Source: Candidatus Micrarchaeota archaeon (GTDB lineage: Archaea; Micrarchaeota; Micrarchaeia; Norongarragalinales; SBBD01). From it: a DNA stretch of 53,613 bases. The notes under the pieces are model-generated. The model searched no databases. It was not told the DNA's origin and worked only from the letters and a program-made list of their open reading frames with translations. The translations under genes and the position numbers were made by a program. The stretch spans positions 1-53,613 of the forward strand of contig JBBSVW010000043.1 of the NCBI GenBank assembly GCA_038046605.1. Reading direction: 5' to 3'. This document shows positions 9,690 through 43,767 of the stretch, in pieces. Every line of letters begins with the position of its first letter. The first letter of the stretch is position 1.

Positions 9690-10380
9690 CCCGAAAATGG
9701 ACCCAAGGCAGATGGCGGCAATGATGAAGAAGCTGGGGATAAACAATGAGGAAATCCCAGCTACCAGAGTTGTTATTGAAACACCCTCCGGAAAAAAGAT
9801 CATCATCGATTCGCCCAGTGTTGTTGCGGTTGATATGCAGGGGCAAAAAAGCTTCCAGGTATCCGGAAGCATTCGGGAAATCGATTCAAAAATGGCGGAA
9901 GAAGAGCAATTTGAAATCGAAGCTGATGAACCAGTTTCCGACGAAAAGCTTGCCGAGAGCGATGTTGCAATGGTTGCGCAGCAGGCAAAGATCAGCAGGG
10001 AAAAGGCAAGGGCGCTTTTGGAGGAATCAAGCGGGGACATTGCTGAAGCGATCATGAAAGGAAGCAGCGCGGATTATTTGCAGGATAGGAAAGGGCATGT
10101 CGAACTGGCAAGCCTTATTGGGAATGTCAAAAGCAGGGAGCTCAAGGAAAAAATGCCGCTTCTATTCGAAAGCAATGAAAATGATCATTTGAAGGCTATT
10201 TCCGTCTGGCACCAGATGGGAAGGGAGAAATTTTCACAGATGATTAGGGCGGAGAGCCCGGAGGTCAGGGAGGCATTATTGGGAAAATTGGGAAAAATCA
10301 CAAATGCGCCGGAAGGGGAGAAGACGCTCGTGAGGCAGGAGCTTAGGAGGAAGGCTACGGAATTGAATGGATGGTTCTAA
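9685..10380 (+). CDS. nac: Nascent polypeptide-associated complex protein with extra C-terminal domain
   Basis: MDPRQMAAMMKKLGI..EEI.A.RVVIE..MQGQKSFQVSG NAC domain, then UBA-like DVAMVAQQA..SREKARALLEESSGDIAEAIMK, then ~105 extra residues. Confidence 0.88.
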   Translation: MFPKMDPRQMAAMMKKLGINNEEIPATRVVIETPSGKKIIIDSPSVVAVDMQGQKSFQVSGSIREIDSKMAEEEQFEIEADEPVSDEKLAESDVAMVAQQAKISREKARALLEESSGDIAEAIMKGSSADYLQDRKGHVELASLIGNVKSRELKEKMPLLFESNENDHLKAISVWHQMGREKFSQMIRAESPEVREALLGKLGKITNAPEGEKTLVRQELRRKATELNGWF

Positions 10381-28793: not shown

Positions 28794-28845
28794 GCCCTAG
28801 GCTACCTTTTTTATTACCAATAAGCCATATTCCTTCCCAATTTAT

Positions 28846-29053
28846 GCAGGGATGCCGGAGCTCGGTCAAACGGGATAGACTCAAGGGACCTCTTTTCTTT
28901 CAAAGAAAAGACCTCCACGAGAAAAGAAGCGCTCATGAAAAATCTTTGATTTTACATTCGCGCAGCAGCTTAGCTGTTCTTTCTTTTGCGGAGCAATCGC
29001 TGAGAGATCTATTAGCCTCAGGGCTTGCGTGGGTTCAAATCCCTCTCCCTGCA
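28846..29053 (+). tRNA. tRNA-Leu(CAA) with a 121-nt intron at 37/38; CCA not encoded
   Basis: Acceptor stem GCAGGGA/TCCCTGC plus discriminator A; anticodon arm ATAGA-CT-CAA-G|A-TCTAT; long variable arm; GGGTTCAAATCCC T-arm. Confidence 0.95.
28886..29006 (+). other. tRNA-Leu intron (121 nt)
   Basis: Central helix CTCA/TGAG with bulges AG|G and AG|A; intron-side helix is weak (relaxed BHB). Confidence 0.9.
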
Positions 29054-30233
29054 TTGTCTCCACGTCTCAGAGCACTAGCCATCTTGGCACGTTTGTGCTG
29101 AATTTGGCACTAAACCCAATTAGACCCTTCCACGCTTCCGCAAACCCCTAACCGGAACAGTTCTCTGTTTATTTCGGTATATACTTAAAGTCCAGCATTA
29201 CGAAATTAATCTTTCCGGACTTCGGATCAAATCTTTCCACAAGGAGATTCGTCAGCGCCTCCTCATGCTTGATAGTTGAATTTATACGGTATCTCTTGTA
29301 TAATTGTATTTGCGCATCCAAGGCCAGGCGTCCGATTACCTCTTTATGCTCTGGATGCTCCTCCTGAACCTCCCTGACTGTTTTCAGCCCGGAAACGTCC
29401 TCCATGACTATAGGCCAGTAGCTCGCGCCTGAAGGGTGTATGCCTTGCAAGGAGAAAATTGGTTGCGGGGTTCTTATGGATATTTGCCTGCCTAATTTTA
29501 TCCCTCTGCTGAACTTAACCAACGAATCTAATTCGTGAAGCGGGCCAGACTTCATGAACAACTGCCTACCGCCGATGTTTGCAATAAAGCGCGTTTTTCC
29601 ACTATGGGCGACAATGCGCGCTCTCCAATTTGCCATGTTAACTAGATCAGACCAGTTTTCGGCTGCAAACTCGAATTCGTTTTTGGGAATGAATAGGTCT
29701 TCGTGCGTTGCTTTTCCTAAAAAAGCTCTGCGGACTTGCGGGCTTAACAGACCCCCGCCCTTTACGACCTTGACTAAACTAGAGCTATCCGAATGGACTT
29801 CAGTTCCTTCGCCGAATAGGTTAGCTGCACGGGTTTGAAATCTTAGCCGAACCAATCGTTCCTCAATCGCATGCCGTTGCCTTAGGGCGAATTCCCGAAT
29901 TCCTTTCGGCAAAATGCGCATCATGCTTTACATCAGCTAGGCTTGAAATAATAAACCCTACATGCCGGATTTTCTCCAACTCGGGATCCTGCTAACTTAT
30001 TCTCCTTCCTCGCTTCCGCAATCGCCCATTTTAGGCGCCCTCCGGACTCATCACTTCCTCGGAAACGCCCTCTGCCCAGAGCGTTATAATCTCAATCAAT
30101 CAACGAGCCTGCTCTCGTCAATGTACGAGGCGGTGCAGAGCTTATAAACGTCAAATGCAACATTGTAGTGCGTGAAAGGGCATTTCTATGAGGGTTCTGC
30201 TCTGAGACGAGGTCTCCCCTTGCTCTCCCTGCA
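29054..30233. mobile_element. Cassette A inserted at the tRNA-Leu 3' end (no integrase)
   Basis: Bounded by direct repeat CTCTCCCTGCA (29043-29053 and 30223-30233); sub-terminal inverted repeat CCACGTCTCAGAGCA (29060-29074) / TGCTCTGAGACGAGG (30198-30212), 14/15 match. Confidence 0.7.
29169..29924 (-). CDS. Orphan protein with protein-kinase-like (Kdo/RIO/APH-style) C-terminal motifs
   Basis: LFMK, IRTPQPI, IVMEDV, NLLV and VMLDF in kinase-fold order; the HxD catalytic loop is not canonical. Confidence 0.55.
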   Translation of the reverse strand: MMRILPKGIREFALRQRHAIEERLVRLRFQTRAANLFGEGTEVHSDSSSLVKVVKGGGLLSPQVRRAFLGKATHEDLFIPKNEFEFAAENWSDLVNMANWRARIVAHSGKTRFIANIGGRQLFMKSGPLHELDSLVKFSRGIKLGRQISIRTPQPIFSLQGIHPSGASYWPIVMEDVSGLKTVREVQEEHPEHKEVIGRLALDAQIQLYKRYRINSTIKHEEALTNLLVERFDPKSGKINFVMLDFKYIPK

Positions 30234-30277
30234 CTCCTATTGCGTCTGAGTGTGTACCCGAATCAAACCTACTCAAT

Positions 30278-31696
30278 TCACCCGTTTTCCGTTTTGGCGT
30301 CGAATAACTGCCGCATATCCTTGATGTCGAGAGTTAGGCACCCGAGTTCTTCCGCCTTTTTCTTGCAACTGGGTTCGAAGCCGTTCTTGCTGACCAAAAT
30401 AAAACGCCGTTTGCCCCCCTTGTTGACGAGTTCAGATTTTTTCAATAGCGCATCCAGCACTTCAACGCCCATTTGCTTGTTCGTCCATTTTACCTCCCCT
30501 AGCAGGAGCTCGTTTTTTCCATCGATCACCAAGTCAATTTCGTTCCCCTTCCGGTCCCACCATGCGCCCATCTTCTCAAAATCAAGCTTTACTCCCTTGA
30601 TTTCCTCCCCGTTGTATAGGATGAACAGTTCCCGTATGACGTCTTCGACGCACATTCCGATATGGGACGGAAGGTTTTCCCGGATGTCCTTGAGCGGGGC
30701 CTTAATGTTTTCGATCTCAAGGCTGGAGGAATGGGGGAGGATGAACGAATACCAGAACTTGAAAAAGTTATCCTTAAGCTCGTACCTCCCGAGGTTTTTC
30801 TTTCCGAACATCGGCTGCCTGCGCTCCACGAGGGCGAGCAATTCCTGCAATCCGTTCAGGTATGGGGGAAGGGTAGTGCGTTGTATTCCTACAACATCGC
30901 AAATCTCCTTCAGGCTCCGTTTGCCCTTGCCTATGGCGTAAAGCAGCGAGTTGTACCGTGCGATGACCTTAAGCTCGAATTCCAGGAGATTTTTAGGCTC
31001 TTCCCTTAGTGGCGCTTGTTTCGTCAAGACTTCTTCAATGATCGCCTCTTCAAGGTGCTTGTGCTTTTTAGCCAGTTCAAGGTAATACGGTGTTCCTCCG
31101 AACACGGAATGCCACGCGATCTTTTCCTCCTCGCTCTTGCCTGGGAACATTTCCCTGAAATCAATGTACCTGAAGGGGGCAAGCTGTATTTGCGCGGTCT
31201 TCCTGCCATAGAGGGCGCCGTGCGGGCTTATTGCAATCCTTTTCATCATTCCAATCGAGGAACCAACGAGAATCAACATCAAGGATGCGTTTTTCAGGCC
31301 GGAGTCCCATTGGTTTTGAAGCTCCGTGATGAAGCTTGGTGAGATCGTCTTGAGCCGCTGGAACTCGTCAATAACTACGACGGTTTTCCTTCCTTCGGAG
31401 GAAGCCTTGAGGTAAGAAAAGAAATCCTTCCAGGCAGCAATTGCAATGGTTTCCTTCCATTGCTCGAAAATGTCCCTTGCCATGAACTGCTTAAGCTCCT
31501 GCTCACCTTGGATGTTTATGTATAGGTAGAGTGATTTTGCATCTACCTTGTTGGTATCGAGGAATTTACGGATGAGGCTTGTCTTGCCAAGCCGCCTGCG
31601 TCCATAAAAGATTATCAGCTCCCCTGCCTTCAAGGATTTGAGCTTGTCGGAAAAAAATGCCAGTTCCCTGTGCCTGTCGTAAAATTCTCCCGTCAT
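30278..31696 (-). CDS. Archaeal P-loop ATPase with wHTH and C-terminal PD-(D/E)XK domain (DUF234-like)
   Basis: FYDR..EL, YGRRRLGKT, VVIDEFQ, GGTPYYL, DNFFKFW and WWDRKGNEIDLV...GEVKW motifs. Confidence 0.9.
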   Translation of the reverse strand: MTGEFYDRHRELAFFSDKLKSLKAGELIIFYGRRRLGKTSLIRKFLDTNKVDAKSLYLYINIQGEQELKQFMARDIFEQWKETIAIAAWKDFFSYLKASSEGRKTVVVIDEFQRLKTISPSFITELQNQWDSGLKNASLMLILVGSSIGMMKRIAISPHGALYGRKTAQIQLAPFRYIDFREMFPGKSEEEKIAWHSVFGGTPYYLELAKKHKHLEEAIIEEVLTKQAPLREEPKNLLEFELKVIARYNSLLYAIGKGKRSLKEICDVVGIQRTTLPPYLNGLQELLALVERRQPMFGKKNLGRYELKDNFFKFWYSFILPHSSSLEIENIKAPLKDIRENLPSHIGMCVEDVIRELFILYNGEEIKGVKLDFEKMGAWWDRKGNEIDLVIDGKNELLLGEVKWTNKQMGVEVLDALLKKSELVNKGGKRRFILVSKNGFEPSCKKKAEELGCLTLDIKDMRQLFDAKTENG

Positions 31697-31833
31697 ATTT
31701 ACACCATATTATTTCAATAATACTGGTTGTATTATTCATATAATACTATTTAAATGTTGCGGCAATGAAGCGATTTCCTAGGAATCGCCCTTCGCTTAAG
31801 TTATGCAAAACAGCCATGCGAGCGACCGAAAAC

Positions 31834-31864
31834 CTTATATATTTTGTATTACGAAACTATCGTA
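31834..31864 (+). promoter_or_regulatory. Putative TATA box and operator-like palindrome for the AbiE pair
   Basis: CTTATATA followed by TACGA-N5-TCGTA (31850-31864); AbiEi proteins are known autorepressors. Confidence 0.35.
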
Positions 31865-31880
31865 TAAAGGCAGTATCGTT

Positions 31881-32687
31881 ATGCAAAAAATAAGGAGCCT
31901 CGGCCGGATGGAGTTGCGGCTGATATTCGAGCTGGAGCATCGGAAGGACCAGGTGTTCAGCATAGCGGACGCCAAGCGCATCCTTAATTCTTCAGATTTT
32001 TCCGTATGGAATGTGTTAAAGCGCTTGATGAAAAAGAAGCGGGTGATTCGTTTGCAGAGGGGAGCATACCTTTTTGCGCCTTTGCGAAGCGGAGAAGAAG
32101 GGCTTTGGTCGGAAGATGCATTCCGCGTGGTTCCTTCGCTAGTGAATGGAAAAGAGTACTATATCGGGTTTGTTTCGGCAATGAATCATTGGGGAATGAC
32201 TGAACAGCTGCCAGTTGTGGTATACGTGGCATTACAGAGGCAAAAACGCGGGTTGGAAGCAGTGCAGGCAAAGTTCGTTTTCGTAAAAAAGAAGCATTTG
32301 GGCGAATTCGTTTCTGTTTCGTACGGCGATATGCCCGTCAACGTTTCTTCAATAGAACAAACGATACTGGACGGGCTGTCCTTCCCTGAGTACTGCCTGG
32401 GCGTTGCTGGCATTGCCAAGGCCATTTGGGTCACTCGAAAAAAAATAGATTGGCAAAAACTGCTTTTGCTTGCAAAGAACGATAAGGGCGCAGTACGGCA
32501 ACGCTTGGGGTATTTGCTGGAATTGCTTGAGCTCAAGAAATACGCCAGGAAGCTGGAAGGCAAGTTTGCAGGATACGCATGGCTTGACCCCACCGCACAA
32601 AAAAAAGAGTTCAAGTACGACAAGAAATGGGGGCTTAAAATAAACGAAGAAGAACGTAAGCTGCTCGAATTCCAAGAGGGATACTGA
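31881..32687 (+). CDS. AbiEi-family type IV antitoxin / transcriptional regulator
   Basis: N-terminal wHTH (RL.KK..VIRLQRGAY), YYIGF.SAMNHWGMTEQLP, SS.EQTILD and RLGYLLE motifs. Confidence 0.88.
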   Translation: MQKIRSLGRMELRLIFELEHRKDQVFSIADAKRILNSSDFSVWNVLKRLMKKKRVIRLQRGAYLFAPLRSGEEGLWSEDAFRVVPSLVNGKEYYIGFVSAMNHWGMTEQLPVVVYVALQRQKRGLEAVQAKFVFVKKKHLGEFVSVSYGDMPVNVSSIEQTILDGLSFPEYCLGVAGIAKAIWVTRKKIDWQKLLLLAKNDKGAVRQRLGYLLELLELKKYARKLEGKFAGYAWLDPTAQKKEFKYDKKWGLKINEEERKLLEFQEGY

Positions 32688-33439
32688 TGGATGCGCAAGA
32701 ATTGAACCACCGGTCGATAATCGCGGGCGTTCCCCGTGCTATTATCGAGAAGGACTTTGCGCTATCGGTAGTGCTCTTGGCAATTTCTGAATCCAAGCTC
32801 GTGGAAAGTATAGTCTTCAAGGGAGGCACTGCACTAAAGAAGATTTATTTTCCAGAAGCGAGGTTTTCCGAAGATTTGGATTTTGCGGCCTCGGATATCG
32901 GCGAGGGCAAGATATTGAAGGAACTGAAAACGCTATTCGAAGGCAGGGAATTGAACGGCGTCAAGTTTGGCGTGTTGGAAAAGGAAAAGACGCGCGCGGG
33001 GCTCCGTATTGCTCTGAAGTTCACTTCCATCCTTGGCCAGCCGCAGAGAATCCGCTTCGATTTCAGCTTCCGCGAAAACCTTGCGCTCACGCCAGAAGAG
33101 AAAGCTGTTGTGGACAACTATAGCTTGGGTGAAGCAAAACTGCTCGTTCTGCCACTTGAAGAGTTATTCGCCGAAAAAATCCATGCGCTCTTTTCGAGGA
33201 CTGCTGCACGAGACTTATACGACGTTTGGTATCTGTTCAAATGCGGAGTCAAGACGGAAAGGAAGCTCATTGACAGGAAATTCGCCTATTATAAAGAAAA
33301 GTTCGAGCTTTCGAAGCTCAAAGATGAAATCGAATCTTTCCGGCAGGACTGGAAGCGGGACCTTACTCAGTTCATGAAAAACGTCCCGGAGTTCGATCCG
33401 GTGGTACGCGAAGTCGATGGAAAATTGAGGGGGTTGTGA
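32687..33439 (+). CDS. AbiEii-family nucleotidyltransferase toxin
   Basis: IEKDF, VFKGGTALKK, RFSEDLDF, AEKIHAL and ARDLYD motifs; TGATG coupling to the antitoxin. Confidence 0.93.
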   Translation: MDAQELNHRSIIAGVPRAIIEKDFALSVVLLAISESKLVESIVFKGGTALKKIYFPEARFSEDLDFAASDIGEGKILKELKTLFEGRELNGVKFGVLEKEKTRAGLRIALKFTSILGQPQRIRFDFSFRENLALTPEEKAVVDNYSLGEAKLLVLPLEELFAEKIHALFSRTAARDLYDVWYLFKCGVKTERKLIDRKFAYYKEKFELSKLKDEIESFRQDWKRDLTQFMKNVPEFDPVVREVDGKLRGL

Positions 33440-33726
33440 TGGGGGATAAGAAGCCTGCAAGGTTCAAAGCTGTTGCAAATTGGTATTTTGGGAATTTCTG
33501 TGCGATGCGCTGCCTCCGTGAACCAGAAGATCTGGGGCGCCTTGAATGCCACGAGAAGATACTCGCCCTCGCAAATGAAAGGAAGGAAGAACTAATCACC
33601 CACAAGGAATTTCTGCGGCTGGTTAGGGAAGAACTCAAAATATGCGATAGGGGTAATTTCAAGAAGCGGGAAGCCATTGACTGCCCCATATGTACGGCAA
33701 CTGATATTCCTCAAAGAAAATGGTGA
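33439..33726 (+). CDS. Small Cys-containing hypothetical protein
   Basis: CAMRC and CPIC motifs; TGATG coupling to abiEii. Confidence 0.55.
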   Translation: MGDKKPARFKAVANWYFGNFCAMRCLREPEDLGRLECHEKILALANERKEELITHKEFLRLVREELKICDRGNFKKREAIDCPICTATDIPQRKW

Positions 33727-33730
33727 GAGA

Positions 33731-34732
33731 ATGCATTTACTAACACTGGCCGGCGTAACTTTGGAAGACATAGGTAAGCTGGTGGATTCAAAGATATTCC
33801 AGCGCGGTGTCGAATACTTCAAAGAAGGCGCGGTCCTGAATCCAGTGATTGATGGCAATCAAATAAGCGCAGAAGTAGAGGGTTCATCCAGCAGCAATTA
33901 CAGGACATCGGCAAAGCTTGTTGAAGGGAAGCTGAAAGGTGAGTGCGACTGTCCGTATGATTGGGGGGTATGCAAACACATTATTGCACTTCTGTTGCAC
34001 TGGATAAAAAGGAGGGATGAGTTCGAAGATGTTGGCAAAAAGGTGACTGAAATCGAAAATATGCAAAATTCCGATCTGGTAAAGATTGTGAAAACGCTTG
34101 CAAAAGAGGAGCCGCAGATATTTTCTCAAATGCTTGACTTGGCACTTCCGCATAAAGCGCAGCGCAATGCAAAAGCAAGGGATTACTCACAACAGATTAA
34201 ACGGGCAATCGAACGCGGAGCGGACTGGAGCGAAATGAACGGACTCTTGCGGCAATTGCGGGCTATTCGCAAACGCATTCTGGTATGGAGAAAAACTGGC
34301 GAGTATGATTACGTGGCTACCCAGCTTTTTGACGTTGTGCAGGCAGTATTAGAGAGCTATGGCCGCTGTGATGATTCTTCTGGAAACCTCTCCGTTTTTC
34401 ATGACGAATGCTTAGAGGAAATTTTGAAGAACTGGGAGGAATTGAATGAAAAAACTAAGGCCAAATTACTTATTGCCGCATGGGAAAGACTGTGTTCTGA
34501 TGAATACGGTTTTGAGGATACCCTAGAGATTTTCATTGAAAGGGTTTGTAAAGGACAATTTGAGCGTGAAGTGCTCAAAAAGCCCATAATAAATACGATC
34601 GTTAAGTTTGAGGAAGCGGGTGCAAAAAAGGCAAAAAATTCACATAGAGCGTACGAGTACAAAAGAGTGCTGCAATTGGCGAAAAGATTTGGGTATATCA
34701 ACAAACAGGGGGTTTATGTTAATAGGGATTGA
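33731..34732 (+). CDS. SWIM zinc-finger protein
   Basis: IFQRG.EYF..G.V and CDCPY...CKHI.ALLL motifs, then a helical C-terminal region. Confidence 0.88.
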   Translation: MHLLTLAGVTLEDIGKLVDSKIFQRGVEYFKEGAVLNPVIDGNQISAEVEGSSSSNYRTSAKLVEGKLKGECDCPYDWGVCKHIIALLLHWIKRRDEFEDVGKKVTEIENMQNSDLVKIVKTLAKEEPQIFSQMLDLALPHKAQRNAKARDYSQQIKRAIERGADWSEMNGLLRQLRAIRKRILVWRKTGEYDYVATQLFDVVQAVLESYGRCDDSSGNLSVFHDECLEEILKNWEELNEKTKAKLLIAAWERLCSDEYGFEDTLEIFIERVCKGQFEREVLKKPIINTIVKFEEAGAKKAKNSHRAYEYKRVLQLAKRFGYINKQGVYVNRD

Positions 34733-34849
34733 AGAATTATATTTCCGCGGAAACGACCGGTGCTCCGAAAGTCAGACTTAAGTATTATCCTTGAGCTGCT
34801 CTCCCTGCATCTTGTTTTATCCTATAGTCTTGTTAATGCTCCCGGTTGG

Positions 34850-35110
34850 TCATTTGAACGACTTGTACCATTTTTCGTATTCCTTGTGGAGGGCAAAGCA
34901 ACGAATTATATAAATTGTCCCCATCTTTACCTCGTAGACTAGCCTTGCCTGCCTAGTCACCTCCTCGACAAAAAAAGGCACCCCAAAGCGCATATGGCGC
35001 CTAGGGAGCTCTCCGCTTATTTTTTCAACATGCTTTATGAAAAAACGCCTAAGGGTAATTTCCATTGCCCCCAAATCTGATCCGGACACCTCAGTGAAAA
35101 CAACACGCAT
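34850..35110 (-). CDS. RelE/ParE-like toxin (divergent)
   Basis: 86 aa; RLVYE...IYIIRCF..HKEYEKWY; downstream of an RHH antitoxin. Confidence 0.62.
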   Translation of the reverse strand: MRVVFTEVSGSDLGAMEITLRRFFIKHVEKISGELPRRHMRFGVPFFVEEVTRQARLVYEVKMGTIYIIRCFALHKEYEKWYKSFK

Positions 35111-35116
35111 ACAAAA

Positions 35117-35353
35117 TCACTTTAGGTATTTGGCTTTTATTTTCTCAAACGGGATGGTTTTCATTTTCCCGCTCTCGATTAGCCCCATCTCCTGCTCAAC
35201 GGCCTTGCGCACAAGGAAAACCTCCTCCTCGTCAACCTGCCGTTCATAGGCAACCAATGCCTGCCGGATGATTTCAGTCTGGTTTCCGGCGTACCCTTTC
35301 TCAATTAGCCGCTCAATCAAGGATTCATATGGCGTACCCAAATTCACGTTCAT
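35117..35353 (-). CDS. Ribbon-helix-helix antitoxin (ParD/CopG-like)
   Basis: MNVNL...LI..LIEKGY..NQTEIIRQAL pattern. Confidence 0.72.
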   Translation of the reverse strand: MNVNLGTPYESLIERLIEKGYAGNQTEIIRQALVAYERQVDEEEVFLVRKAVEQEMGLIESGKMKTIPFEKIKAKYLK

Positions 35354-35469
35354 CTCCCCCACCTCCACTGCTCATCTAATGGGCATACAAGTATATAATC
35401 ATTGCGCATAGCTAGAGTAGAATATCATAAATGGAGTGCCCATTAACCATTGGGAGTTCGCCCCGCGCC

Positions 35470-35724
35470 CTATTGCCTCTTGTAAACCCTTTTCCGGTGG
35501 CCTATCAAGGTGACTTCTATTCGTTTTAAATTGTGGTCGATGTCAGCAATTAGTCTGTAATCGCCAACTCGCAACTTAAAATCGCTTCTTCCTTCCAACC
35601 CTTCGAAAAAATGCCTAGGATTTTCCTTGGCTGCGGCTAGCTTTTGGAATATCCTGCCCCTTATTTCATGCGGGAGGCTTTCAAGGTACTCTATTGCTTT
35701 CCTATCAAAATTCAGCTCATACAT
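35470..35724 (-). CDS. relE: RelE/StbE-family toxin
   Basis: MYEL.F.RKA..YL..L and FKLRVGDYRLI...IGHRKRVY motifs. Confidence 0.9.
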   Translation of the reverse strand: MYELNFDRKAIEYLESLPHEIRGRIFQKLAAAKENPRHFFEGLEGRSDFKLRVGDYRLIADIDHNLKRIEVTLIGHRKRVYKRQ

Positions 35725-35963
35725 TACAAGCCCAGCCTTTTCCTAGCCTCCGATTCAGTAATGAACGCGCCATCTTTTATGCGTTTCCTTGCCTCCTCAA
35801 TTCGGATGACTGCCTCTTTTGAGAGTTCTGGCCTATCCTTTGCAGTTTCAGCAATGCTGACAAGTTTCATTACAACTTCATCGTAGCTCTCGTTCCTATA
35901 TTCCCTAAACCCATCAAGGCGGGATTTGGTGTTTTTCCTGATTCGAATAGTCCCTATTTCCAT
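35724..35963 (-). CDS. Antitoxin paired with relE
   Basis: TIRI..NTK.RL......ESYDEVV..L N-terminus; TAATG coupling to relE. Confidence 0.8.
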   Translation of the reverse strand: MEIGTIRIRKNTKSRLDGFREYRNESYDEVVMKLVSIAETAKDRPELSKEAVIRIEEARKRIKDGAFITESEARKRLGL

Positions 35964-36084
35964 ATACATCACGCATACACAGGTATACCTTAATATATTT
36001 AAAGGCAACGAGCAAGGTGCGAAAAATAGGGTTTTGAAATGCACGAATACGAGTTTATGTTTTTAGTTTTTCAAACTGTTGATC

Positions 36085-36951
36085 TCAACTTGAGGAATTA
36101 AGGAGAGCGTCCAATAAATAACCCAAAAAGCTTTTTGCAAGCGTCCTGACATTGTGGGCTGCCGCCCACAACAGGCACGCGCAGCGCCGCGTGCCGATTC
36201 TCCGCTCAGAAATCCGCGAACCATATCGGTTGGCAAAGCCGCCGAATGCAGCTTCGATCCTGCCACGGTACTTCCGACGCTTCGCGTCGTCATAATTCCT
36301 CCAAATCACGCCGCGAATCCCGCGGCGGGAAGCCGTGTTCCTCCTTTGCTGCATGCAAGGCTCGAAGCCGAGCTGAAGCGCAAGCTTGAAAAGCTTCTTG
36401 TCATCGTAAGCTCGATCACCGTATAGCTCTGCAGGAGGCGCTTTTTCCAGCAGCTGCCTCCCCACGACTACGTCGTGCACAAAGCCGCGAGTGGCTTTTG
36501 CAGCCGCAAACCAGATTTTGTGCGCCCAGGGCGCATGCTCAACGAGCGCATGGAGCTTCCAATAGGGCTTGCGTTGGAATCTGCGCTTGTAGCCAAAGCC
36601 CCGAACCGCAATCCCTGTGGAATCGAGTATTGCGCCCTTCACTTTGAAAGTTGAGCGCAATTGCCTTGCTGCGCGTTCTACGAGCGCGGAGACCCAAGCG
36701 CTTTTCAGTTTGCAAAACGCCCACTGCAGGCAGCTTCTTGGGATTTTCAGCACTGCTGCGGCAGTGCGGTAGCTGAAGCCATAGAATGAGCGGACGAAAA
36801 GTGCCAAAGCATAGTCCCTAGGGCTCCGTTTTGGCTTCCTTCCGCGCTTTGCTGGCTTCCAAGGCGCTCCTACCGCTGCCAGCAGGCGGCGAAACGTTTT
36901 TTCAATTTGCGGTTCTAAAGGCAAATTGAGAGCTAGGACCATAGCTCTCAC
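36085..36951 (-). CDS. DDE transposase
   Basis: ILDSTG, YWKLH, YGDRAYD and YRGRIEAAF (DDE with YREK-like motif). Confidence 0.9.
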   Translation of the reverse strand: MRAMVLALNLPLEPQIEKTFRRLLAAVGAPWKPAKRGRKPKRSPRDYALALFVRSFYGFSYRTAAAVLKIPRSCLQWAFCKLKSAWVSALVERAARQLRSTFKVKGAILDSTGIAVRGFGYKRRFQRKPYWKLHALVEHAPWAHKIWFAAAKATRGFVHDVVVGRQLLEKAPPAELYGDRAYDDKKLFKLALQLGFEPCMQQRRNTASRRGIRGVIWRNYDDAKRRKYRGRIEAAFGGFANRYGSRISERRIGTRRCACLLWAAAHNVRTLAKSFLGYLLDALLNSSS

Positions 36952-37011
36952 CTCTCTGTGGGTTTACAAGAACCCACAGGGAGGCTTCAAATATAATTAT
37001 TGGACAGACTC
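36103..37011 (-). mobile_element. Complete 909-bp insertion sequence (DDE, IS5/IS4-like)
   Basis: TIRs GAGAGCGTCCAATAA (36103-36117) and TTATTGGACAGACTC (36997-37011), 12/15 match; perfect 9-bp target duplication GGAATTAAG at 36094-36102 and 37012-37020. Confidence 0.92.
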
Positions 37012-37077
37012 GGAATTAAGCAACGTTTAAAAGCCCTTATCGCCATCTAAAGAGTAATCTTTTTCCAAGGAGAGCAT

Positions 37078-40000
37078 ATGGAACGATTTTTCAAATATTC
37101 GCTGATGCTTCTATTTCTCCTAACACTTTCCACTTTTGTTTTTGCCGCCGAAACCAAGGCGCCAGCGGAAAAAGCAGCCACATACTATAATATAGGCGAC
37201 CAGCTTGATAGCCGGGTTTCTGAAATCGATTCTATTTCTATTCCGGAGAGCGCAGTTGCCTCTTATGTGAAGGATGGCAGCTCCTGCAAGGCAGGTGAGG
37301 ATAAATACTGCGAATTTGACTTTGGGAAATTTGTGGAGGTAATCTTCAATGGGAGGACAGCCATGGCTGGCGTCGATGACCTTTTCATGGATTCATTCAA
37401 GGTGAAAAAATTCAAGATCAGGCAGGAATTCTTCACTGATGGCATTTTCCTATTAAATGAGGGCAAACTCCGGTTCAACACCGCCAAACTCACAGAAAAG
37501 CAAAACAAATCCTTCGAATGCACAAAGGCCGCAAATGGGGAGGATGGGTATTGCAAGCTCTCATTCCGCAATGGCGATATTGAAAAGGCAATTCCAGATA
37601 GGTTTAAGGTAAAAGGAGAGGGTTGGAGGGACCTAAAGAAGCTTTTTGTGGAAATTGAATCTGTTGAAAAGCAGGAGGTTATTCCAAACGAGAGGCTGCG
37701 CATCCCAAGGCTTGATGACAAGGAATACAAATACCCATATTCAGACATCACGGTAAAAATCAACGGAGTTGAAATTTCGGAATATGAGGGCAAAATCACG
37801 CAAATCGACACCATCGAATACGACCTTGGAAAAAACGTTGCCCCGCTTGCCATATGGACAAGGAAAACCAGGAAGCTTTGGGGCTTTGAACTGATTACTG
37901 GTTTGATCGTGGAAAACCCGCTTGATTTGAAGGATCCAACTCACGGAAAAATCGCAAGTGAGATATACAAAATAACCGGCGACGGGACGGTTTCAAAGCA
38001 GGTTGAGAAGGTTCGCAACCTATTCATCCACTATCTGGATAACGGCTTTAACATCAAGAAGGGCTCCAAAACCAAGTTCTTTGCAATGGTTCCGGCATCC
38101 TTCAACCTCAAATTTGGGCTAAGGCCGACTAATATAGATATAGAAATTGGAAACAAGCCGGCAAAAGGCAACGGGCCGGAAACTAATGTCGATTTCACAG
38201 CAGAGGAAATAGCAAATGGAAGGCAAAAATTGAAAGTCACTGCTGATGCCTCCCTTAATTACTACCCAGAAATGCTTGCGTATGCGCAGGGGCTAAGGAA
38301 AGAGGGCCTCAAGCTCAATTCGGATGGCTCAATTGACCAAAAAATCCTAACATTGCCGGAGAAATTGGATGAGAAGGCATCTAGCAAGGAGATTGCCTTG
38401 AAGGAGGAGGAATTCGAATATACCGAAGGCGACATTCACGAAACAATAAAATTAACTGATGAAATTGGCAAACTAGAAAACGGCGATTACAACATTACAG
38501 TAAGCACCGGCAAGGAAAGGGAGGATATTACCGAGGTAAAAAGGCTCATAATCACCGACAGGGAAGGGGTTTCCCAATTCACTATGAAGCTATTTGATGA
38601 AGTAGATGTTGGCGGGACAAAAATAAGCATTCTGAACAAGGGAACCTATCAGGCATTGATTCGATTTGATAAAGAGGAATGCGAAATTGGCAGGGCATGC
38701 GACCTTTCCCTTGATTTTTCAAAGAAGCTCGATAACGCAGCAGGTTTAGATGTATTAACACCACCCTTTGCGCGCATTCTCGACAATCAATTCCTACTGA
38801 TCCCCTGGCAGGAGCCAACGGATAGGAGCCTAATTGTCATCACACTTATTCCACTTACGGATGGCGGAAAGAAAATAGAACGAAAGATTGAACCTGCAAC
38901 TCCGGGGAATATCATCATAAGGGCATGGATTGAACCAACTCCCGCATATAAGAGCAAGCCGTTTGAGCCGCCTTACCCAAGGGAGTACAAAGAAGGCAAT
39001 TTCTACCTCACCCAGGAAGTCGAAATGGTGAAAATGACCTTTAAGATGGATAAGGCAACCCAGTTCCACATCCTATCGGTCATCGATTCCAATGGAAAGG
39101 AATCAAGGATAGAATCGAGTAACTTGAAGGATAAATCAAGCGCGGCAATTGATGCGGCAAAGGGCGCTACTGCAAGCCTTAAGGAGTACGTTGCTACATG
39201 GCTTGGGTACGATAAATTCGAAGGGCCAGACAAGACGCCCGCCGGTGAATACACATTAAGGCTTAGGATATGCTCCAAGGTCGGCGAAAAGCTGTGCGCA
39301 ATCGAGGATAGGCGCCCAATTACAGTTAAAAAAATCATCACTAAAAACGTCGAGCCTGAAGGCAAGTTTGGAAAAGTCAACGCCAAATTCAAGGGGGATC
39401 CGAACCTGGTAGTACTGATGACCATTTCCTCGAGCAATGGCGGGTACGGCAAGATACTCACGTCAATTGGGGATTACGCAAAGGATGTATTGGTCGATGG
39501 GACCCAGATCCAAAGGATGCAGATCGACAGCAAGGTGGGCGCAACGATTTCTGCGCAAGTAGGCTCAACGCTCAATTTCCTGGCTTGGTCGCCAACATCC
39601 GAAGGCAAATATGAGACTAGGACCATTAAGGAAAGCGGCAATGAGGACGTAATATTTGATTTCACGCAGGATGGGGCAGGTGGCGGTGCCAACGAGGGAG
39701 GATCAACAGAGTGCCAAGGAATCCGCTGCATAGTTGTCCAGGGCCCAATTGACGAAGCTGGGAAATACTCCATCCATGAGGCATTGGGATCTGACACTGA
39801 TTTGCCCAAGACCAATTCGAAGAAGTTCACTGTGCCCATTACTGCCGGAGTAGGAAAAGAAGTCTATATAGACATGAAATATATGCGGGGAGGGCTCATC
39901 CGAACCACGACAAAGAGCAGGCAGGTAGATTTCAAATTGAAGGATTGGGTAGATAATGCAAAGAAGCCTAATTTCGTCGTTAAGGTGATCAACCTCAAGG

Positions 40001-42075
40001 GCGATGAGCAATTCACCATGAGGGCAGGCATGAATCGCGAGGAATTGTATTGGGGCTTCTGGCCGCCATCAAAAAATAAAGGAGTCGCTCTTGATCCATT
40101 TTTCTTCAGGGTAGGCTATGGGCCAGATCTTGCGCAGTATTCAACCCTATATGGCGATTATGGGCAAAACCTAAAGCTTGGGGACGACATTTCCCTCACA
40201 TTCTTCGATTCAAGCAACAGGATCGTTTTGTTCAAGGAATTTGAAGTGGGATTCCCGCATGAGATCGTGGAGGTCGATGCAAATGATTTTGATCCGAGCG
40301 GCAAATGGGCAACAAGCGGAAAGCCAAGCAGCCCATCCCTTCAGGTTAAATTGAAAAATGCGCCACCCGGATTGCAGCTAAGCATGCGGCTAGATGAAAT
40401 CGCATCCCCATCAGGCTTGTCATATTCATATGATAAATCGTTATTCACATACACGGATTCATCAACGGCAATATCCGAAGTCTTCCCAAAAAGCGGGATG
40501 GGCGACATTTCAGGTAAGAAATTCTACCTTAGGATATTCGAGGAAGGGGTAGAAATATTCAAGACGCAAGTTGAAGTCGACCCGAACAAGCCAATATACG
40601 AGTTTGATTACACAAAACTGGAAATCAACTCCTTCAAAGTCAAGATAATCAACGTCCCGCTTGGGGCAAAGCTATCAATGACATTGGACGAAACCGATTC
40701 GGCTAAAGCGTTAAGAAAATCTGATTTCAGCCTCCAGGGAAGCGACATGTACTCCGATGAATTCCCGTATTCGGGCATAATCGGCAAGGATGTAACGCTC
40801 CATGTTTTTGAAGGGGGAAGGGAGATTTACAAAGCAGACCTCCAGCTTAGCGGTAAGATCCCAGAAATTGTCTTGAATTACAGGAACATGAGGCAGCCAA
40901 TCGTGATTGACACACTGAACGCGTTCCATGTAAAAATCATCAACCTAAAGGGCAAGGAAAAGCTTACAATGAAGCTATTTGATTCGGAAACCGGCTCTAC
41001 CCTTGGGAATTCAGCATTCACAATAAAGGTGGATGGAGGGTATTCAGAAGAACTTGCTTATAGCGGCATAATCGGGAAGGATGTGACATTGAAGGTTTAC
41101 GAAGATGGCAGGGAAATTTACTCAACTAACCTGGAATTGTCCGGTAAATTGCCCGAAGTCACCCTCAATTATAGGAACATGAGGCAGCCAGTTGTAAGCG
41201 ATACCCTCCTTGGGTTCCATGTAAAAATCATCAACTTGAAAGGCACTGAAAAGCTCACAATGAAGCTGTTTGATTCGGATACCGGCTCTACCCTTGGGAA
41301 TTCAGCATTCACAATGAAGGGGCTCGAAGGATTCTCCACGGAGATGGCTTACCTTGGGATCATTGGTAAGGATGTGTCGCTTAGGGTATACGAGAATGAG
41401 AGGGAAATTTACTCTACCGGGCTTAAGCTATCAGGAAAATTAGGTGAAATCGTATTGAATTACAGGAACATGAGGCAGCCGGAAGTTAAGGAAAAAATAA
41501 TCCCGGAACCTGCGGAAGGCCAAAAAATAATCACCATTAAGGGCCCTATGCCAAAAGGGATCCGCTATGAAATGTCCTACGGGTCCGAGGGAGTTACTGA
41601 TGGGGATGACGTTGTCGTCCCCCTTAGGGAAAGCTTAAGCGGATCAGTTCTTGACATTTGGGTTGTGATGACGCCAGATGGTAGCACAGCAGACAAATAC
41701 AGGCTTGTTTCGGATAATACCAAGGGTTTGGATATCAAATTTGATTACGCCAATTTCGGGAGCAAAATTCCCACCTTTGCGGTAAAGTTGGTGAATGTGC
41801 CATCCAAAGAAAGCCTTAGCGGCATTCGGGTTATGCCCGTGATGTATGATGGTCCATTCCAAACCCCGATAATAATGGAATCTGAAAGGTTCGCTTATGA
41901 GGGCGGAATCGATAAGGCAGCATATTCCCCATATTTCATGCCGGACCACGATGATATGAGCGGAGTACTTAACTTCATCGATGGCGAAGGCAATGTACTG
42001 TTCACAAAAGACTTTCGGATAAAGTACCAGGACGGCTATGTTGTATTGGAAGTAGATTATAATGAAATTGCGTGA
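37078..42075 (+). CDS. Very large secreted/surface protein with internal 97-aa repeats (1665 aa)
   Basis: Signal peptide (...STFVFA|A); GGAG SD; beta-rich repeats in the C-terminal half. Confidence 0.85.
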   Translation: MERFFKYSLMLLFLLTLSTFVFAAETKAPAEKAATYYNIGDQLDSRVSEIDSISIPESAVASYVKDGSSCKAGEDKYCEFDFGKFVEVIFNGRTAMAGVDDLFMDSFKVKKFKIRQEFFTDGIFLLNEGKLRFNTAKLTEKQNKSFECTKAANGEDGYCKLSFRNGDIEKAIPDRFKVKGEGWRDLKKLFVEIESVEKQEVIPNERLRIPRLDDKEYKYPYSDITVKINGVEISEYEGKITQIDTIEYDLGKNVAPLAIWTRKTRKLWGFELITGLIVENPLDLKDPTHGKIASEIYKITGDGTVSKQVEKVRNLFIHYLDNGFNIKKGSKTKFFAMVPASFNLKFGLRPTNIDIEIGNKPAKGNGPETNVDFTAEEIANGRQKLKVTADASLNYYPEMLAYAQGLRKEGLKLNSDGSIDQKILTLPEKLDEKASSKEIALKEEEFEYTEGDIHETIKLTDEIGKLENGDYNITVSTGKEREDITEVKRLIITDREGVSQFTMKLFDEVDVGGTKISILNKGTYQALIRFDKEECEIGRACDLSLDFSKKLDNAAGLDVLTPPFARILDNQFLLIPWQEPTDRSLIVITLIPLTDGGKKIERKIEPATPGNIIIRAWIEPTPAYKSKPFEPPYPREYKEGNFYLTQEVEMVKMTFKMDKATQFHILSVIDSNGKESRIESSNLKDKSSAAIDAAKGATASLKEYVATWLGYDKFEGPDKTPAGEYTLRLRICSKVGEKLCAIEDRRPITVKKIITKNVEPEGKFGKVNAKFKGDPNLVVLMTISSSNGGYGKILTSIGDYAKDVLVDGTQIQRMQIDSKVGATISAQVGSTLNFLAWSPTSEGKYETRTIKESGNEDVIFDFTQDGAGGGANEGGSTECQGIRCIVVQGPIDEAGKYSIHEALGSDTDLPKTNSKKFTVPITAGVGKEVYIDMKYMRGGLIRTTTKSRQVDFKLKDWVDNAKKPNFVVKVINLKGDEQFTMRAGMNREELYWGFWPPSKNKGVALDPFFFRVGYGPDLAQYSTLYGDYGQNLKLGDDISLTFFDSSNRIVLFKEFEVGFPHEIVEVDANDFDPSGKWATSGKPSSPSLQVKLKNAPPGLQLSMRLDEIASPSGLSYSYDKSLFTYTDSSTAISEVFPKSGMGDISGKKFYLRIFEEGVEIFKTQVEVDPNKPIYEFDYTKLEINSFKVKIINVPLGAKLSMTLDETDSAKALRKSDFSLQGSDMYSDEFPYSGIIGKDVTLHVFEGGREIYKADLQLSGKIPEIVLNYRNMRQPIVIDTLNAFHVKIINLKGKEKLTMKLFDSETGSTLGNSAFTIKVDGGYSEELAYSGIIGKDVTLKVYEDGREIYSTNLELSGKLPEVTLNYRNMRQPVVSDTLLGFHVKIINLKGTEKLTMKLFDSDTGSTLGNSAFTMKGLEGFSTEMAYLGIIGKDVSLRVYENEREIYSTGLKLSGKLGEIVLNYRNMRQPEVKEKIIPEPAEGQKIITIKGPMPKGIRYEMSYGSEGVTDGDDVVVPLRESLSGSVLDIWVVMTPDGSTADKYRLVSDNTKGLDIKFDYANFGSKIPTFAVKLVNVPSKESLSGIRVMPVMYDGPFQTPIIMESERFAYEGGIDKAAYSPYFMPDHDDMSGVLNFIDGEGNVLFTKDFRIKYQDGYVVLEVDYNEIA
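40633..41480 (+). repeat. Three tandem 291-bp intragenic repeats
   Basis: AGGAACATGAGGCAGCC at 40882, 41173 and 41464; FxVKIIN starts at 40633, 40924 and 41215. Confidence 0.9.
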
Positions 42076-42083
42076 TTTGAACT

Positions 42084-42611
42084 ATGAATAAGGCCGCTAT
42101 AACTATCGTATTTTCGCTTATTCTCCTTGGCTGCACCCAGCCCAGCCCTGAACAGGCGGCAACTCCGGCGGCAAAAGCGTTCATGGGCATCAAGCTTGCA
42201 AGCATTTCATCCGAAATACCTTCAGGCTGGACGAAGGGGACGGATGATGGAATCGATTTGGCGTATAGCAACGGCAAGGGGGCGTCATATCTTTTCTCAT
42301 CCATACCTATGGACGGGGATACGCTAGATGTTTTTGGAGGCAAAGAGCTCAATGGATTTGATCTGGAAAGCAAGCTTACACCACTTGAAATCTCATTTGC
42401 GCAGAATGGCAAGGTTAGCAAAATAGGAGGGAAAGATTGGTATGTTGGCTGCTACTCCCTAATCGACGAAAGCGGAACTGCATTCGAGCAGTGCACCTCT
42501 TTTACAGCATGCGGCGATAACGCGGGTTCCGTGCTGATTACTGCAGGACAAGGAAAGCTAGAAGCGCTGCTCCCCGGATACCAGCATGCGCTTGAGACAT
42601 TCAAGTGCTGA
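42084..42611 (+). CDS. Putative lipoprotein
   Basis: Lipobox ILLGC after a short signal; 8 nt downstream of the giant protein. Confidence 0.75.
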   Translation: MNKAAITIVFSLILLGCTQPSPEQAATPAAKAFMGIKLASISSEIPSGWTKGTDDGIDLAYSNGKGASYLFSSIPMDGDTLDVFGGKELNGFDLESKLTPLEISFAQNGKVSKIGGKDWYVGCYSLIDESGTAFEQCTSFTACGDNAGSVLITAGQGKLEALLPGYQHALETFKC

Positions 42612-42697
42612 AAAAATTAGGGGGTTTGGCTAATTTCGAGGATAGTATATTGCATTTAGCACTACTCCACAATCTTTCCTTACCGAGCTTTTTTTCC

Positions 42698-43333
42698 CTA
42701 ATACATCCCCCTTCTCATCCCCATTTGCCTTGGAGGGGCATTGGGATTTGCCGGCAACGCATATCCAAGCACTATTCCAATGATTATGGGAAGGAAATCC
42801 ATCTTTCCGTAAAGGATGATGTGCCCAATTGTAAGGAAGGCAAAAGCCATTATGGTGATCATCGGCAAGCCTTCCGTAACCGTAAGCTCCCAGGGGTGCC
42901 TTGCGATGTAGGCGCCAAAGACGCTAAATACACCGGCTGCAGCTCCAAAAAGAGGGATTGTTGGTTCAAGCCCAAAGGAAATGGAAAGAAGGCCCAGATT
43001 TCCGGCTATTGCACCTAGAAGGTAGGCGATTGCAAAGTTGTTGGTGCCGATTTCACGCTCAAAATCCTGGAGCATGACAATGTAGATGGATATGAGCAAA
43101 AGGAAATAGAAATTCGTGAAAAGGAAGAAAGTTGATAGGTAGGAGAAAGGTGGATTTGCAAAATCCGGGAAAATCAAGTAGGTGAAGTAGGCAAGCCAAT
43201 ATGCCTGGAGCAGGTAGTCTGAAAGCATGAAACTATTGAAGGAATCGGCGGAATAAAAATCTTTAAGGTGGCAAGGAGCGCCAAATGCGCCCGTATCGGA
43301 TAAAAGGCCGATATATAAGGATGGAACAACCAT
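42698..43333 (-). CDS. Rhomboid-like membrane protein, probably catalytically inactive
   Basis: FEREIG....AIAYLLGAIAGNL and LFGAAAGVFSVFG (GxSG serine replaced by Ala); no TM6 His. Confidence 0.72.
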   Translation of the reverse strand: MVVPSLYIGLLSDTGAFGAPCHLKDFYSADSFNSFMLSDYLLQAYWLAYFTYLIFPDFANPPFSYLSTFFLFTNFYFLLLISIYIVMLQDFEREIGTNNFAIAYLLGAIAGNLGLLSISFGLEPTIPLFGAAAGVFSVFGAYIARHPWELTVTEGLPMITIMAFAFLTIGHIILYGKMDFLPIIIGIVLGYALPANPNAPPRQMGMRRGMY

Positions 43334-43362
43334 AACCTATTAGTTAAGTAAGGTGGTAACAA

Positions 43363-43767
43363 ATGGCAAAACAAAAGCAAAGGAATGCGGCTAGGGGAAA
43401 TCCAAGAAATGCCCCAAAACGCAGCAACCATGGGGAAAAGGCAGGGTTCTTTGCCCCGACCATCGAAAAACTGCTTCTTTTATTGATTTTGGCGGGTATT
43501 TTCATGTTTTTCTTTGAATCCCCACTTATCAAAATGCAATGCTTTTCACAGGATTTGACCAAACCGGAAGGAATTTACGACACCCAGACAAATTGCCCCA
43601 AAACCATGGGCGCGCCTCTACCGCTATTCATGGGACCAACTACCAGCGACATTAAAGGGCCGGAAATTGGTTTTGTTCCAATGCTCCTCTATTTCGTAAT
43701 AGATGTGGCATTCTGGTACCTCATTGCATGCGCACTCATTTATGCAAAAAATAAGCGGATTAAGTAA
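43363..43767 (+). CDS. 2-TM membrane protein
   Basis: FFESP..C..C...GAPLP...D.AFWYLIAC; paralog of the next gene. Confidence 0.7.
   Translation: MAKQKQRNAARGNPRNAPKRSNHGEKAGFFAPTIEKLLLLLILAGIFMFFFESPLIKMQCFSQDLTKPEGIYDTQTNCPKTMGAPLPLFMGPTTSDIKGPEIGFVPMLLYFVIDVAFWYLIACALIYAKNKRIK

Follow-up and report, generated by a model that had tools for sequence, protein, structure and literature searches.

Two integrase-less units stacked at a tRNA-Leu gene of a Micrarchaeota archaeon are very probably derived from tRNA-Leu integrative elements of its order

Results

We analysed a stretch of 53,613 nucleotides (nt), hereafter the window, that makes up contig C43 (JBBSVW010000043.1) of the Candidatus Micrarchaeota archaeon assembly GCA_038046605.1, and in which a tRNA-Leu(CAA) gene is followed by two units, A (29054-30233) and B (30234-34809), each closed by a copy of the last 11 nt of the tRNA (the core). 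The assembly, coded G000 here with its relatives coded from G001 onward, consists of 106 contigs with 1,635,789 bases and is 90.7% complete. A reading made from the letters of the window alone (the original prediction) had described the arrangement as a row of integrase-free cassettes captured one after another by a recombinase acting in trans. The tRNA, the core copies and the ends of the two units are given below; att stands for attachment site, and ends like those of unit A or unit B are called A-type and B-type, respectively.

28846..29053, + strand: tRNA-Leu(CAA), the putative attB, called by ARAGORN with introns allowed (28845-29054), its ends set from the acceptor stem
29043..29053, + strand: core copy 1, CTCTCCCTGCA, the last 11 nt of tRNA-Leu(CAA)
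29054..29134, + strand: unit A left end (attL arm), containing CCACGTCTCAGAGCA and the palindrome GGCACGTTTGTGCTGAA
29060..29074, + strand: left arm of the unit A sub-terminal inverted repeat, 14/15 complementary to 30198-30212
30055..30222, + strand: unit A right end (attR arm), from the TTCCTCGGAAAC motif to ...TGCTCTGAGACGAGGTCTCCCCTTG
30223..30233, + strand: core copy 2, CTCTCCCTGCA, at the unit A/unit B junction
30234..30290, + strand: unit B left end (B-type), resembling the flank of tRNA-Leu(TAA) on contig C23
34740..34798, + strand: unit B right end (B-type), TTCCGCGGAAAC ... GTCAGACTTAAGTATTATCCTTGAGCTG
34799..34809, + strand: core copy 3, CTCTCCCTGCA, at the end of unit B

ARAGORN at its default setting found no tRNA in the window, and the intron option was needed to recover tRNA-Leu(CAA). 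Its acceptor stem pairs GCAGGGA with TCCCTGC and is followed by the discriminator A, and an intron of 121 nt occupies the anticodon loop at about 28884-29004. Orthologues are present in 4 same-genus genomes.

The recurrence of the tRNA end that the original prediction had reported was borne out. The 11-mer CTCTCCCTGCA starts at 29043, 30223 and 34799, always on the + strand, so that the core-to-core spacing is 1180 and 4576 nt; these 3 copies compare with 0.02 expected, were reached in 0 of 100 shuffles, and are the sole copies in the whole assembly. By an analytic estimate, two extra copies would fall on the same strand within 6 kb with a probability of about 1e-6. Core copies 2 and 3 are both intergenic and preceded by TG, and they are the only places in the genome where TGCTCTCCCTGCA occurs. 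The motif CGTCT starts at 29063 and at 30243, in either case after a 9-nt spacer behind the core, and does not follow core copy 3. A search for degenerate cores with up to 3 mismatches returned 10 matches against 6.5 expected, and hence no sign of older scars.

The predicted sub-terminal inverted repeat of unit A is likewise present, with 29060-29074 pairing to 30198-30212 at 14 of 15 positions. It includes the 12-mer CGTCTCAGAGCA, which has two copies in the genome, inverted and one at each end of unit A; two 45-nt flanks would share a perfect inverted repeat of 12 nt by chance with a probability of about 7e-5. The weaker GTCTGA/TCAGAC echo described for unit B was also found. The counts and estimates for cores and inverted repeat rule out a chance origin of the repeats.

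Neither unit encodes a recombinase, as was judged by Pfam searches of the open reading frames (ORFs) of 29169-36044, and the search for a tyrosine recombinase that had been proposed gave none: PF00589, PF00239 and PF01867 (tyrosine recombinase, serine recombinase and Cas1) had no match in the whole G000 assembly, although control genomes were positive in 14/14, 12/14 and 7/14 cases, respectively. The assembly is metagenome-derived, and an integrase on an unbinned plasmid or virus is possible.

We compared the DNA of unit A with 41 related genomes at a threshold of E<=0.01 (E, expectation value), and its ends alone matched, in 9 of the 41 genomes with G000 included. The left end is 90% identical over 92 nt to G013:C27:125-216, and the right end is 72-74% identical to right ends in G024:C1, G012:C87, G012:C97 and G034:C68. 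The left end can be aligned with 9 other left junctions, and in the resulting alignment of 10 junctions from 7 genomes CCTGCA of the core is invariant, as are G22, C24 and T25 of CGTCT, which lie at a fixed offset from the core. The CGTCT-type end, previously noted in the window, is thus a conserved feature of the site across genomes. A model of the left junction (R1) was run on the 68 genomes of the order in the collection searched; it matched 33 places in 20 of them, 8 of its matches being training rows, and gave the left end of unit A 76 bits. Judged from these alignments, tRNA-Leu elements in other families of the order have attL and attR junctions that are homologous to the ends of unit A.

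Several of those elements carry an integrase gene. In G013:C27, tRNA-Leu(TAG) is followed by an A-type left end and, 14 nt later, by an open integrase ORF of 402 amino acids (aa; L070:230-1438); the element is 4.1 kb long, and here the integrase-bearing unit adjoins an integrase-less one. The element behind tRNA-Leu(TAA) in G024:C1 spans 11.9 kb; both of its ends are A-type, and a second core is present. One of its genes codes for a 1032-aa protein in which a zinc ribbon and a HerA/TraG-type ATPase domain accompany a Phage_integrase domain (PF00589, E 1.9e-20), and it also carries genes for a Cdc6-like ATPase, hsdM/S/R (type I restriction-modification) and a YgjP-like peptidase. A 6.5-kb element in G044:C6 combines the integrase with a 1424-aa beta-helix protein, and the gene behind the left end in G034:C25 is an integrase pseudogene with internal stops. 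An open integrase ORF beside attL, as in type II (intact-gene) integrase elements, was found in relatives and not in the window.

In the autonomous members the integrase has about 400 aa, ends in a zinc ribbon and is encoded directly inside the left end. It matched PDB entry 4a8e, a XerC-like tyrosine recombinase, with E 1.4e-15, and the box I Arg and HxxR are kept in the aligned part, which does not extend to the catalytic Tyr; in NCBIfam it scores best against XerA, with 106 bits where the cut-off is 220. At E<=1e-5 the family was found in 34 of the 68 genomes of the order, and the same search did not find it in G000. By its conserved residues, the integrase looks functional as a family. The integrase of G024:C1 is read as one ORF with the ATPase (L040:3216-6314), whereas in most other genomes the two parts match different genes, with products of about 400 aa and about 780 aa, and this ORF is either a true fusion or a sequencing artefact.

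The original prediction had taken the units for small non-autonomous cassettes, as opposed to deletion remnants of large integrase-bearing elements. That distinction survives only in part: the ends of unit A are the ends of the 4.1-, 11.9- and 6.5-kb elements, which argues that the units were derived from elements of this kind.

The arms of the unit A inverted repeat sit 6 nt (left) and 10 nt (right) from the direct repeat of the core, and when right end, core and left end are joined in the order of an attP, the 12-nt arms become an inverted pair around the core, 33 nt apart. Such inverted arms around a core would fit recombinase-binding sites. The alternative is a transposon or a casposon-like element, in which case a transposase or a Cas1-type casposase would have duplicated the target site, giving the 11-mer, and the arms would be terminal inverted repeats. 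In its favour, unit A has the 14/15 inverted repeat close to its two ends and a direct repeat flanking it, and a gene for an IS-type (insertion sequence) DDE transposase is located at 36085-36951. However, the arms are spaced from the direct repeat rather than abutting it, and the direct repeat is the tRNA-Leu end in every genome examined, which points to site-specific insertion and not to duplication of an arbitrary target. Furthermore, the autonomous relatives have a tyrosine integrase and no transposase, and the genome contains no Cas1 (PF01867). On the strength of the arm spacing, the integrase of the relatives and the missing PF01867, we rejected this extremely improbable explanation.

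The ends of unit B are of a different type. Over 68 nt, the sequence 30223-30290 shares 86.8% identity (E 3.5e-15) with C23:44496-44563, where the genome's own tRNA-Leu(TAA) gene ends and its downstream flank begins, and AbiEi/AbiEii homologues are found 2-4 kb downstream of that C23 junction. A core in G008:C3 has a B-type right end before it and a B-type left end after it; AbiEi/AbiEii come next, and behind them there is a second core-like 11-mer that differs at 2 positions. The AbiE pair occurs behind a B-type left end (C23 and G008:C3) and also behind an A-type left end (G017:C36). On the right side, the B-type end that precedes the core in G009:C48 is 82% identical over 61 nt, core included, and B-type-like right ends precede the core also in G034:C68, G008:C3 and G011:C16, so that the end type of unit B recurs at the own tRNA-Leu(TAA) and in G008, G009, G034 and G011.

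The likeness between the unit B left junction and the C23 flank could also be accounted for by homologous recombination between tRNA-Leu paralogues, the extra copies of the tRNA end being leftovers of partial tRNA duplications, and the variable orientation of the tRNA among members of the genus (see below) would agree with such exchanges. We consider this very unlikely, given that the repeats comprise just 11 nt of the tRNA and have sharp borders, and that the same 11-nt limit holds in G024, G013, G034, G012 and G011; moreover, the ends are conserved across families while the cargo varies, and the integrase genes of the relatives stand at the predicted place.

The genes of the two units are as follows.

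29169..29924, - strand: unit A cargo, an orphan ORF of 251 aa with no Pfam, NCBIfam or PADLOC family
30278..31696, - strand: ATPase_2 plus DUF234 P-loop ATPase of unit B (Pfam; PADLOC PDC-S27, E 8e-43)
31803-32687 and 32687-33439, + strand: AbiEi and AbiEii, an abortive-infection/type IV toxin-antitoxin pair (Pfam, PADLOC)
33436-33726, + strand: ORF of 96 aa, unit B cargo
33677-34732, + strand: SWIM-finger protein of 351 aa (SWIM and DUF6880 below the Pfam cut-offs; PADLOC PDC-S62, E 2.3e-14)

The AbiE pair, the PDC-S27-like ATPase and the SWIM protein matching PDC-S62 agree with the defence-type cargo that had been anticipated for unit B. For unit A a kinase-like orphan had been proposed, and it is the orphan status that was upheld: among about 5.8 billion proteins, with 500 candidates scored, the ORF had no relative but itself, and its cluster holds 3 member sequences on 2 contigs, the longest of 204,642 bases. 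Kinase likeness is a lead only, in that the ESM Atlas model (predicted template modelling score 0.76) resembles clusters of Kdo/WaaP-type kinases at template modelling scores of 0.51-0.58 and may point to a protein-kinase-like fold of that type; a single-sequence AlphaFold2 model had a predicted local distance difference test score of 36, too low to be of use.

A direct repeat, CTTCC[A/T]CGCTTCCGCAA, brackets the unit A ORF at 29126-29148 and 30004-30026, the two copies being alike in 20/23 nt. Its 17-mer pattern has 3 copies in G000, one of them at C2 about 25064 (-), and a version of about 40 nt has 3 copies on one strand (-) of G001:C75 (L085), at 3990, 8074 and 8832; 2 of these 3 are intergenic and lie 40-90 nt upstream of gene starts. 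The repeat may be a promoter or leader typical of the genus, and it may mark the site where cargo of host type replaced the integrase module.

We then considered the locus in relatives. The flanks are conserved in the 4 same-genus genomes (KaiC-like, o25958, rhomboid, adenylosuccinate lyase and aIF5B genes), and in 4/4 of these loci the DNA homology to the window ends at 29054/29055; in G007, of the same family, it extends to 29067. The sequence 3' of tRNA-Leu(CAA) differs in each relative locus. In G002 the tRNA has the orientation seen in the window and is about 690 bp from the o42605/rhomboid genes, which indicates that the stretch from 29054 to about 42600 is variable, and not units A and B alone. 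The claim of a mobile region ending at 34810 therefore held for the two units and failed for the end point. As for the empty site that had been expected, 29053 joined to 34810, the nearest approach was a resemblance of 38 nt directly after the tRNA of G001, on a contig that ends 145 nt beyond the tRNA.

The orientation of tRNA-Leu(CAA) relative to its conserved neighbours varies among G006, G004, G002 and G003 (L021-L024): G002 agrees with the window, G004 and G003 have the gene inverted, and in G006 it is inverted along with the neighbouring o25958 gene. Inverted copies of the core that could explain the flipped tRNA of G003 and G004 were none longer than 8 nt, with 8-mers at chance level.

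Downstream of the third core the following features were recorded.

34810..34835, + strand: sequence after the last core, TCTTGTTTTATCCTATAGTCTTG, a third left-end type or old tRNA flank
34850..35368, - strand: two ORFs of 86 and 83 aa, outside both clean units, with no Pfam family

Stretches of 25 nt like 34810-34835 trail the last core in G009, G011 and G034:C68. Homologues of the two ORFs (50% and 66% identity) are found at the same junction in G009:C48, and the two are likely a toxin-antitoxin pair. From 34810 to 43400 no recognisable right or left end was detected. Further along the variable stretch, before the conserved rhomboid gene is reached, lie the DDE transposase gene mentioned above (288 aa), with a terminal sequence that matches the ends of contigs C4 and C17, and a 1665-aa ORF (37078-42075) with no Pfam family and an internal repeat of about 290 nt (40774-41189 versus 41065-41480, 73% identity).

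Units without an integrase are frequent among the loci examined. We counted as complete those units with A- or B-type ends that are bounded by two cores, and left out two gene-less stretches between cores in G011 (32 and about 104 nt); 3 of the resulting 11 have an integrase and 8 do not, fractions that are biased because the sample was gathered by likeness to the ends in the window.

With integrase: G013:C27, 4.1 kb; G024:C1, 11.9 kb; G044:C6, 6.5 kb
Without integrase, window: unit A, 1.18 kb; unit B, 4.58 kb
Without integrase, G034:C68: 2.7 kb, sucrose-phosphate synthase/phosphatase fusion
Without integrase, G012:C97: 0.86 kb, Yip1-domain protein
Without integrase, G012:C87: 2.4 kb, an ORF of no assigned function and a helicase C-terminal fragment
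Without integrase, G011:C16: 0.74 kb; 1.04 kb (nucleotidyltransferase)
Without integrase, G008:C3: 2.0 kb, AbiE

Of the 13 best R1 left junctions (E<1e-7), 8 were training rows. An integrase gene comes next in 3 of the 13 (1 a pseudogene), 7 have none within at least 3.9 kb of available sequence, and 3 are at a contig edge. The contigs G041:C5, G054:C40 and G042:C71 (L076, L078 and L083) end at an A-type left junction or a few hundred nt past it; the elements seem to break short-read assemblies and are probably under-counted.

These numbers raise the possibility of a live cassette platform, in which the small integrase-less units would be the predominant mobile form, excised as circles of 1-5 kb with a compact attP and re-inserted at any tRNA-Leu core by integrases that a few autonomous elements provide in trans, giving integron-like arrays for gene capture. 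The preponderance of integrase-less units, both among the 11 complete ones and behind the best R1 junctions, agrees with it, as do the single-gene units of 0.7-1.2 kb (unit A, two in G011 and G012:C97), the identity of the cores within arrays (3/3 in the window, 4/4 in G011:C16) and two units of G034 whose left ends are 100% identical over the first 66 nt before different cargo begins. On the other hand, none of the units recurred in a second context, a single population is the only known source of the unit A ORF, broken genes occur (the helicase fragment of G012:C87 and the integrase pseudogene of G034:C25), the G000 assembly has no integrase, and the figure of 8/11 carries the bias just described. 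We regard a live platform as possible but tentative.

The locus is partly present in 8 groundwater metagenome runs (Logan contigs). For four of them (X2, X3, X5 and X6) the joints listed included none linking 29053, 30233 or 34809, in contigs that are blind to rare excision forms; in X3, X5 and X6 the stretch 29338-30339 is uncovered, and gaps in such contigs carry no meaning. A metagenome scan with a 22-nt degenerate pattern of the left end gave 2 matches, both in unrelated coding sequence.

Other tRNA genes of G000 show a similar pattern, which we count in favour of tRNA-directed integration. The 3' end of tRNA-Glu (C73) recurs downstream over 12-13 nt at +1310 and +2117, and 19 nt of the own 3' end recur at +153 for tRNA-Lys CTT (C57) and at +81 for tRNA-Leu(TAG) (C26).

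Directly 3' of several tRNA genes in the genus there is a palindrome of the form GACA..GGGGG-loop-CCCCC..TGTC, with sites in G000 at C26 about 10950-11010, C57 about 10095-10140 and C23 about 53636-53680, and in relatives at L021 about 6768-6810 (G006) and L023 about 16360-16407 (G002). In G002 and G006 it follows the tRNA-Leu(CAA) orthologue where the window holds unit A. The hairpin could serve as a trailer or terminator, or it could be a small mobile element.

At its start (1-1967) the window contains the 3' part of an archaeal 23S rRNA gene with insertions of 733 and 336 nt, which may be rRNA introns; a 266-aa ORF (252-1052, -) overlaps the first of them. Rfam at its gathering threshold found large-subunit rRNA alone in the window.

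Discussion

It is very probable that units A and B are integrase-less, att-bounded derivatives of tRNA-Leu integrative elements that circulate in this archaeal order. From the junctions we infer a course of events in which an autonomous element would present an attP composed of right end, 11-nt core and left end, and crossing-over would occur inside the 11 nt common to this attP and the 3' end of tRNA-Leu. Integration would regenerate the tRNA and leave one core at each end of the insert, and the next unit would stack by a second integration into the resident core. The integrase module would then be lost or replaced, and small cargo units would keep both ends. Natural junctions with right end, core and left end in this order were seen in G013:C27 (A-A), G008:C3 (B-B) and G034:C68 (B-A), which argues that tandem stacking is usual. 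The proposal in the original prediction of a tandem stack of discrete, recombinase-free units bounded by a tRNA-derived core, rather than one classic island, is in good agreement with these results. With regard to capture by a recombinase in trans, what stands is the need for such an enzyme: since the assembly encodes none, the units would be stranded in G000, and any movement would require a recombinase supplied in trans, as when a related integrase arrives on another element.

Several observations weigh against this interpretation. With no integrase in the assembly, the link to the enzyme rests on the relatives, and B-type ends were never found beside an integrase (in the window, C23, G008:C3, G009:C48, G034:C68 and G011:C16). 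A connection of B-type ends with the family integrase is nevertheless suggested by their identical core, by the motif C-K-TCT-S-AG at the same offset and by mixed arrays such as that of G034:C68, where a B-type right end is followed by an A-type unit. The GC content does not distinguish the units (0.48 and 0.47) from the whole window (0.466). The 17-23-nt direct repeat that flanks the unit A cargo is also present in intergenic spacers of the genus, which suggests that some other recombination shaped unit A. An identity of 11 nt between attP and attB is short for archaeal elements. Finally, 8 of the 11 complete units lack an integrase, yet their cores and ends are intact, which passive decay does not predict and which the live-cassette explanation fits better.

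Gene gain in DPANN-type archaea with genomes of 1 Mb is poorly known, and the locus together with its relatives defines a concrete element family, with an integrase, an 11-nt crossover core and two or three conserved end types. The cargo of the family includes AbiE, type I and type III restriction-modification, candidate ATPases, surface proteins and orphans, and in the examined sample integrase-less units with intact ends outnumber the autonomous ones. The conserved ends are a practical marker for mobile DNA in these genomes, whose assemblies often break at such junctions. A more far-reaching idea, which we hold to be rather doubtful, is that tRNA-Leu genes are capture platforms on which mini-circles of one to a few genes, with a compact attP (the 11-nt core plus arms of about 35-170 nt), are shuffled by XerA-like integrases of minority elements. 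If this were true, genomes without a recombinase could still gather defence and surface genes, and the arrays would be an archaeal functional counterpart of the integron that evolved from integrative plasmids. Among the papers listed, judged by titles and the beginnings of abstracts, we found none on such arrays in Micrarchaeota or DPANN, and the term 'DPANN' is absent from the text of a review of archaeal integrases (PMC8371274).

Integrons are arrays of small, mostly single-gene units that all carry a recombination site and depend for their movement on a tyrosine recombinase encoded outside the unit; a resident intI with attI heads the array, and the attC sites are imperfect palindromes. The array described here starts instead at a tRNA gene, upstream of which are an MscS-like channel and genes of no assigned function, and the genome contains no tyrosine recombinase. 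Its junctions share the tRNA-derived CTCTCCCTGCA with arms and do not resemble attC, as judged without an attC model search, and the units derive, in our interpretation, from autonomous integrative elements. The original description of an integron-like array has accordingly to be abandoned, since the array lacks a resident integrase and an attI at its head and has composite junctions that are like an attP and unlike attC. Casposons have a Cas1 casposase and terminal inverted repeats that abut the target-site duplication; they differ from the units in both respects, there being no PF01867 in the genome and the arms being spaced 6/10 nt from the direct repeat.

The integrase-bearing relatives resemble type II (pNOB8-type, lambda-like) elements in that the integrase gene is intact after integration and the target is a tRNA gene (PMC8371274). 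Ends and integrase form a family of their own, however (XerA 106 versus 220 bits), and in one member the integrase is joined to a HerA/TraG-type ATPase. The split integrase of SSV-type (type I) elements has no counterpart here, as neither the window nor the genome yielded an integrase fragment. The review cited above reports for archaea that elements integrate in tandem and that the integrase can be lost once they are integrated, and it names tRNA-Leu(TAA) as a target of pT26-2-related plasmids of Methanococcales (PMC8371274).

Prochlorococcus tycheposons are site-specific tyrosine-recombinase elements with cargo, flanked by partial tRNAs; in their islands repeated integration at one tRNA pushes older elements inward and leaves degenerate remnants and scattered partial tRNAs (bioRxiv 10.1101/2020.12.28.424599). 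They are bacterial and about 10 kb or more in size, and their remnants are described as lacking clear boundaries, whereas the units described here keep both ends.

A close match is found in the cis-mobilizable elements (CIMEs), att-bounded units without integration genes that an integrase from a neighbour or in trans can excise or move. Their tandem accretion proceeds by integration into a resident att where the target gene has its 3' end (PMC5704250). In their anatomy, units A and B agree with this description from the ICESt1-type systems of Streptococcus, and G013:C27 pairs an integrase-bearing with an integrase-less unit. Neither unit has integration genes of its own (Pfam on all ORFs); the ends of unit A are related to those of integrase-bearing elements (G013, G024 and G044), and for unit B only integrase-less relatives were found. 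Unlike the streptococcal elements, the units have an archaeal host, no conjugation genes, an identity segment of 11 nt and single-gene members down to 0.7-1.2 kb, and their mobilisation is a prediction. The stack at tRNA-Leu(CAA) is thus a familiar kind of event in an unfamiliar lineage, CIMEs and tandem accretion being already known from bacteria.

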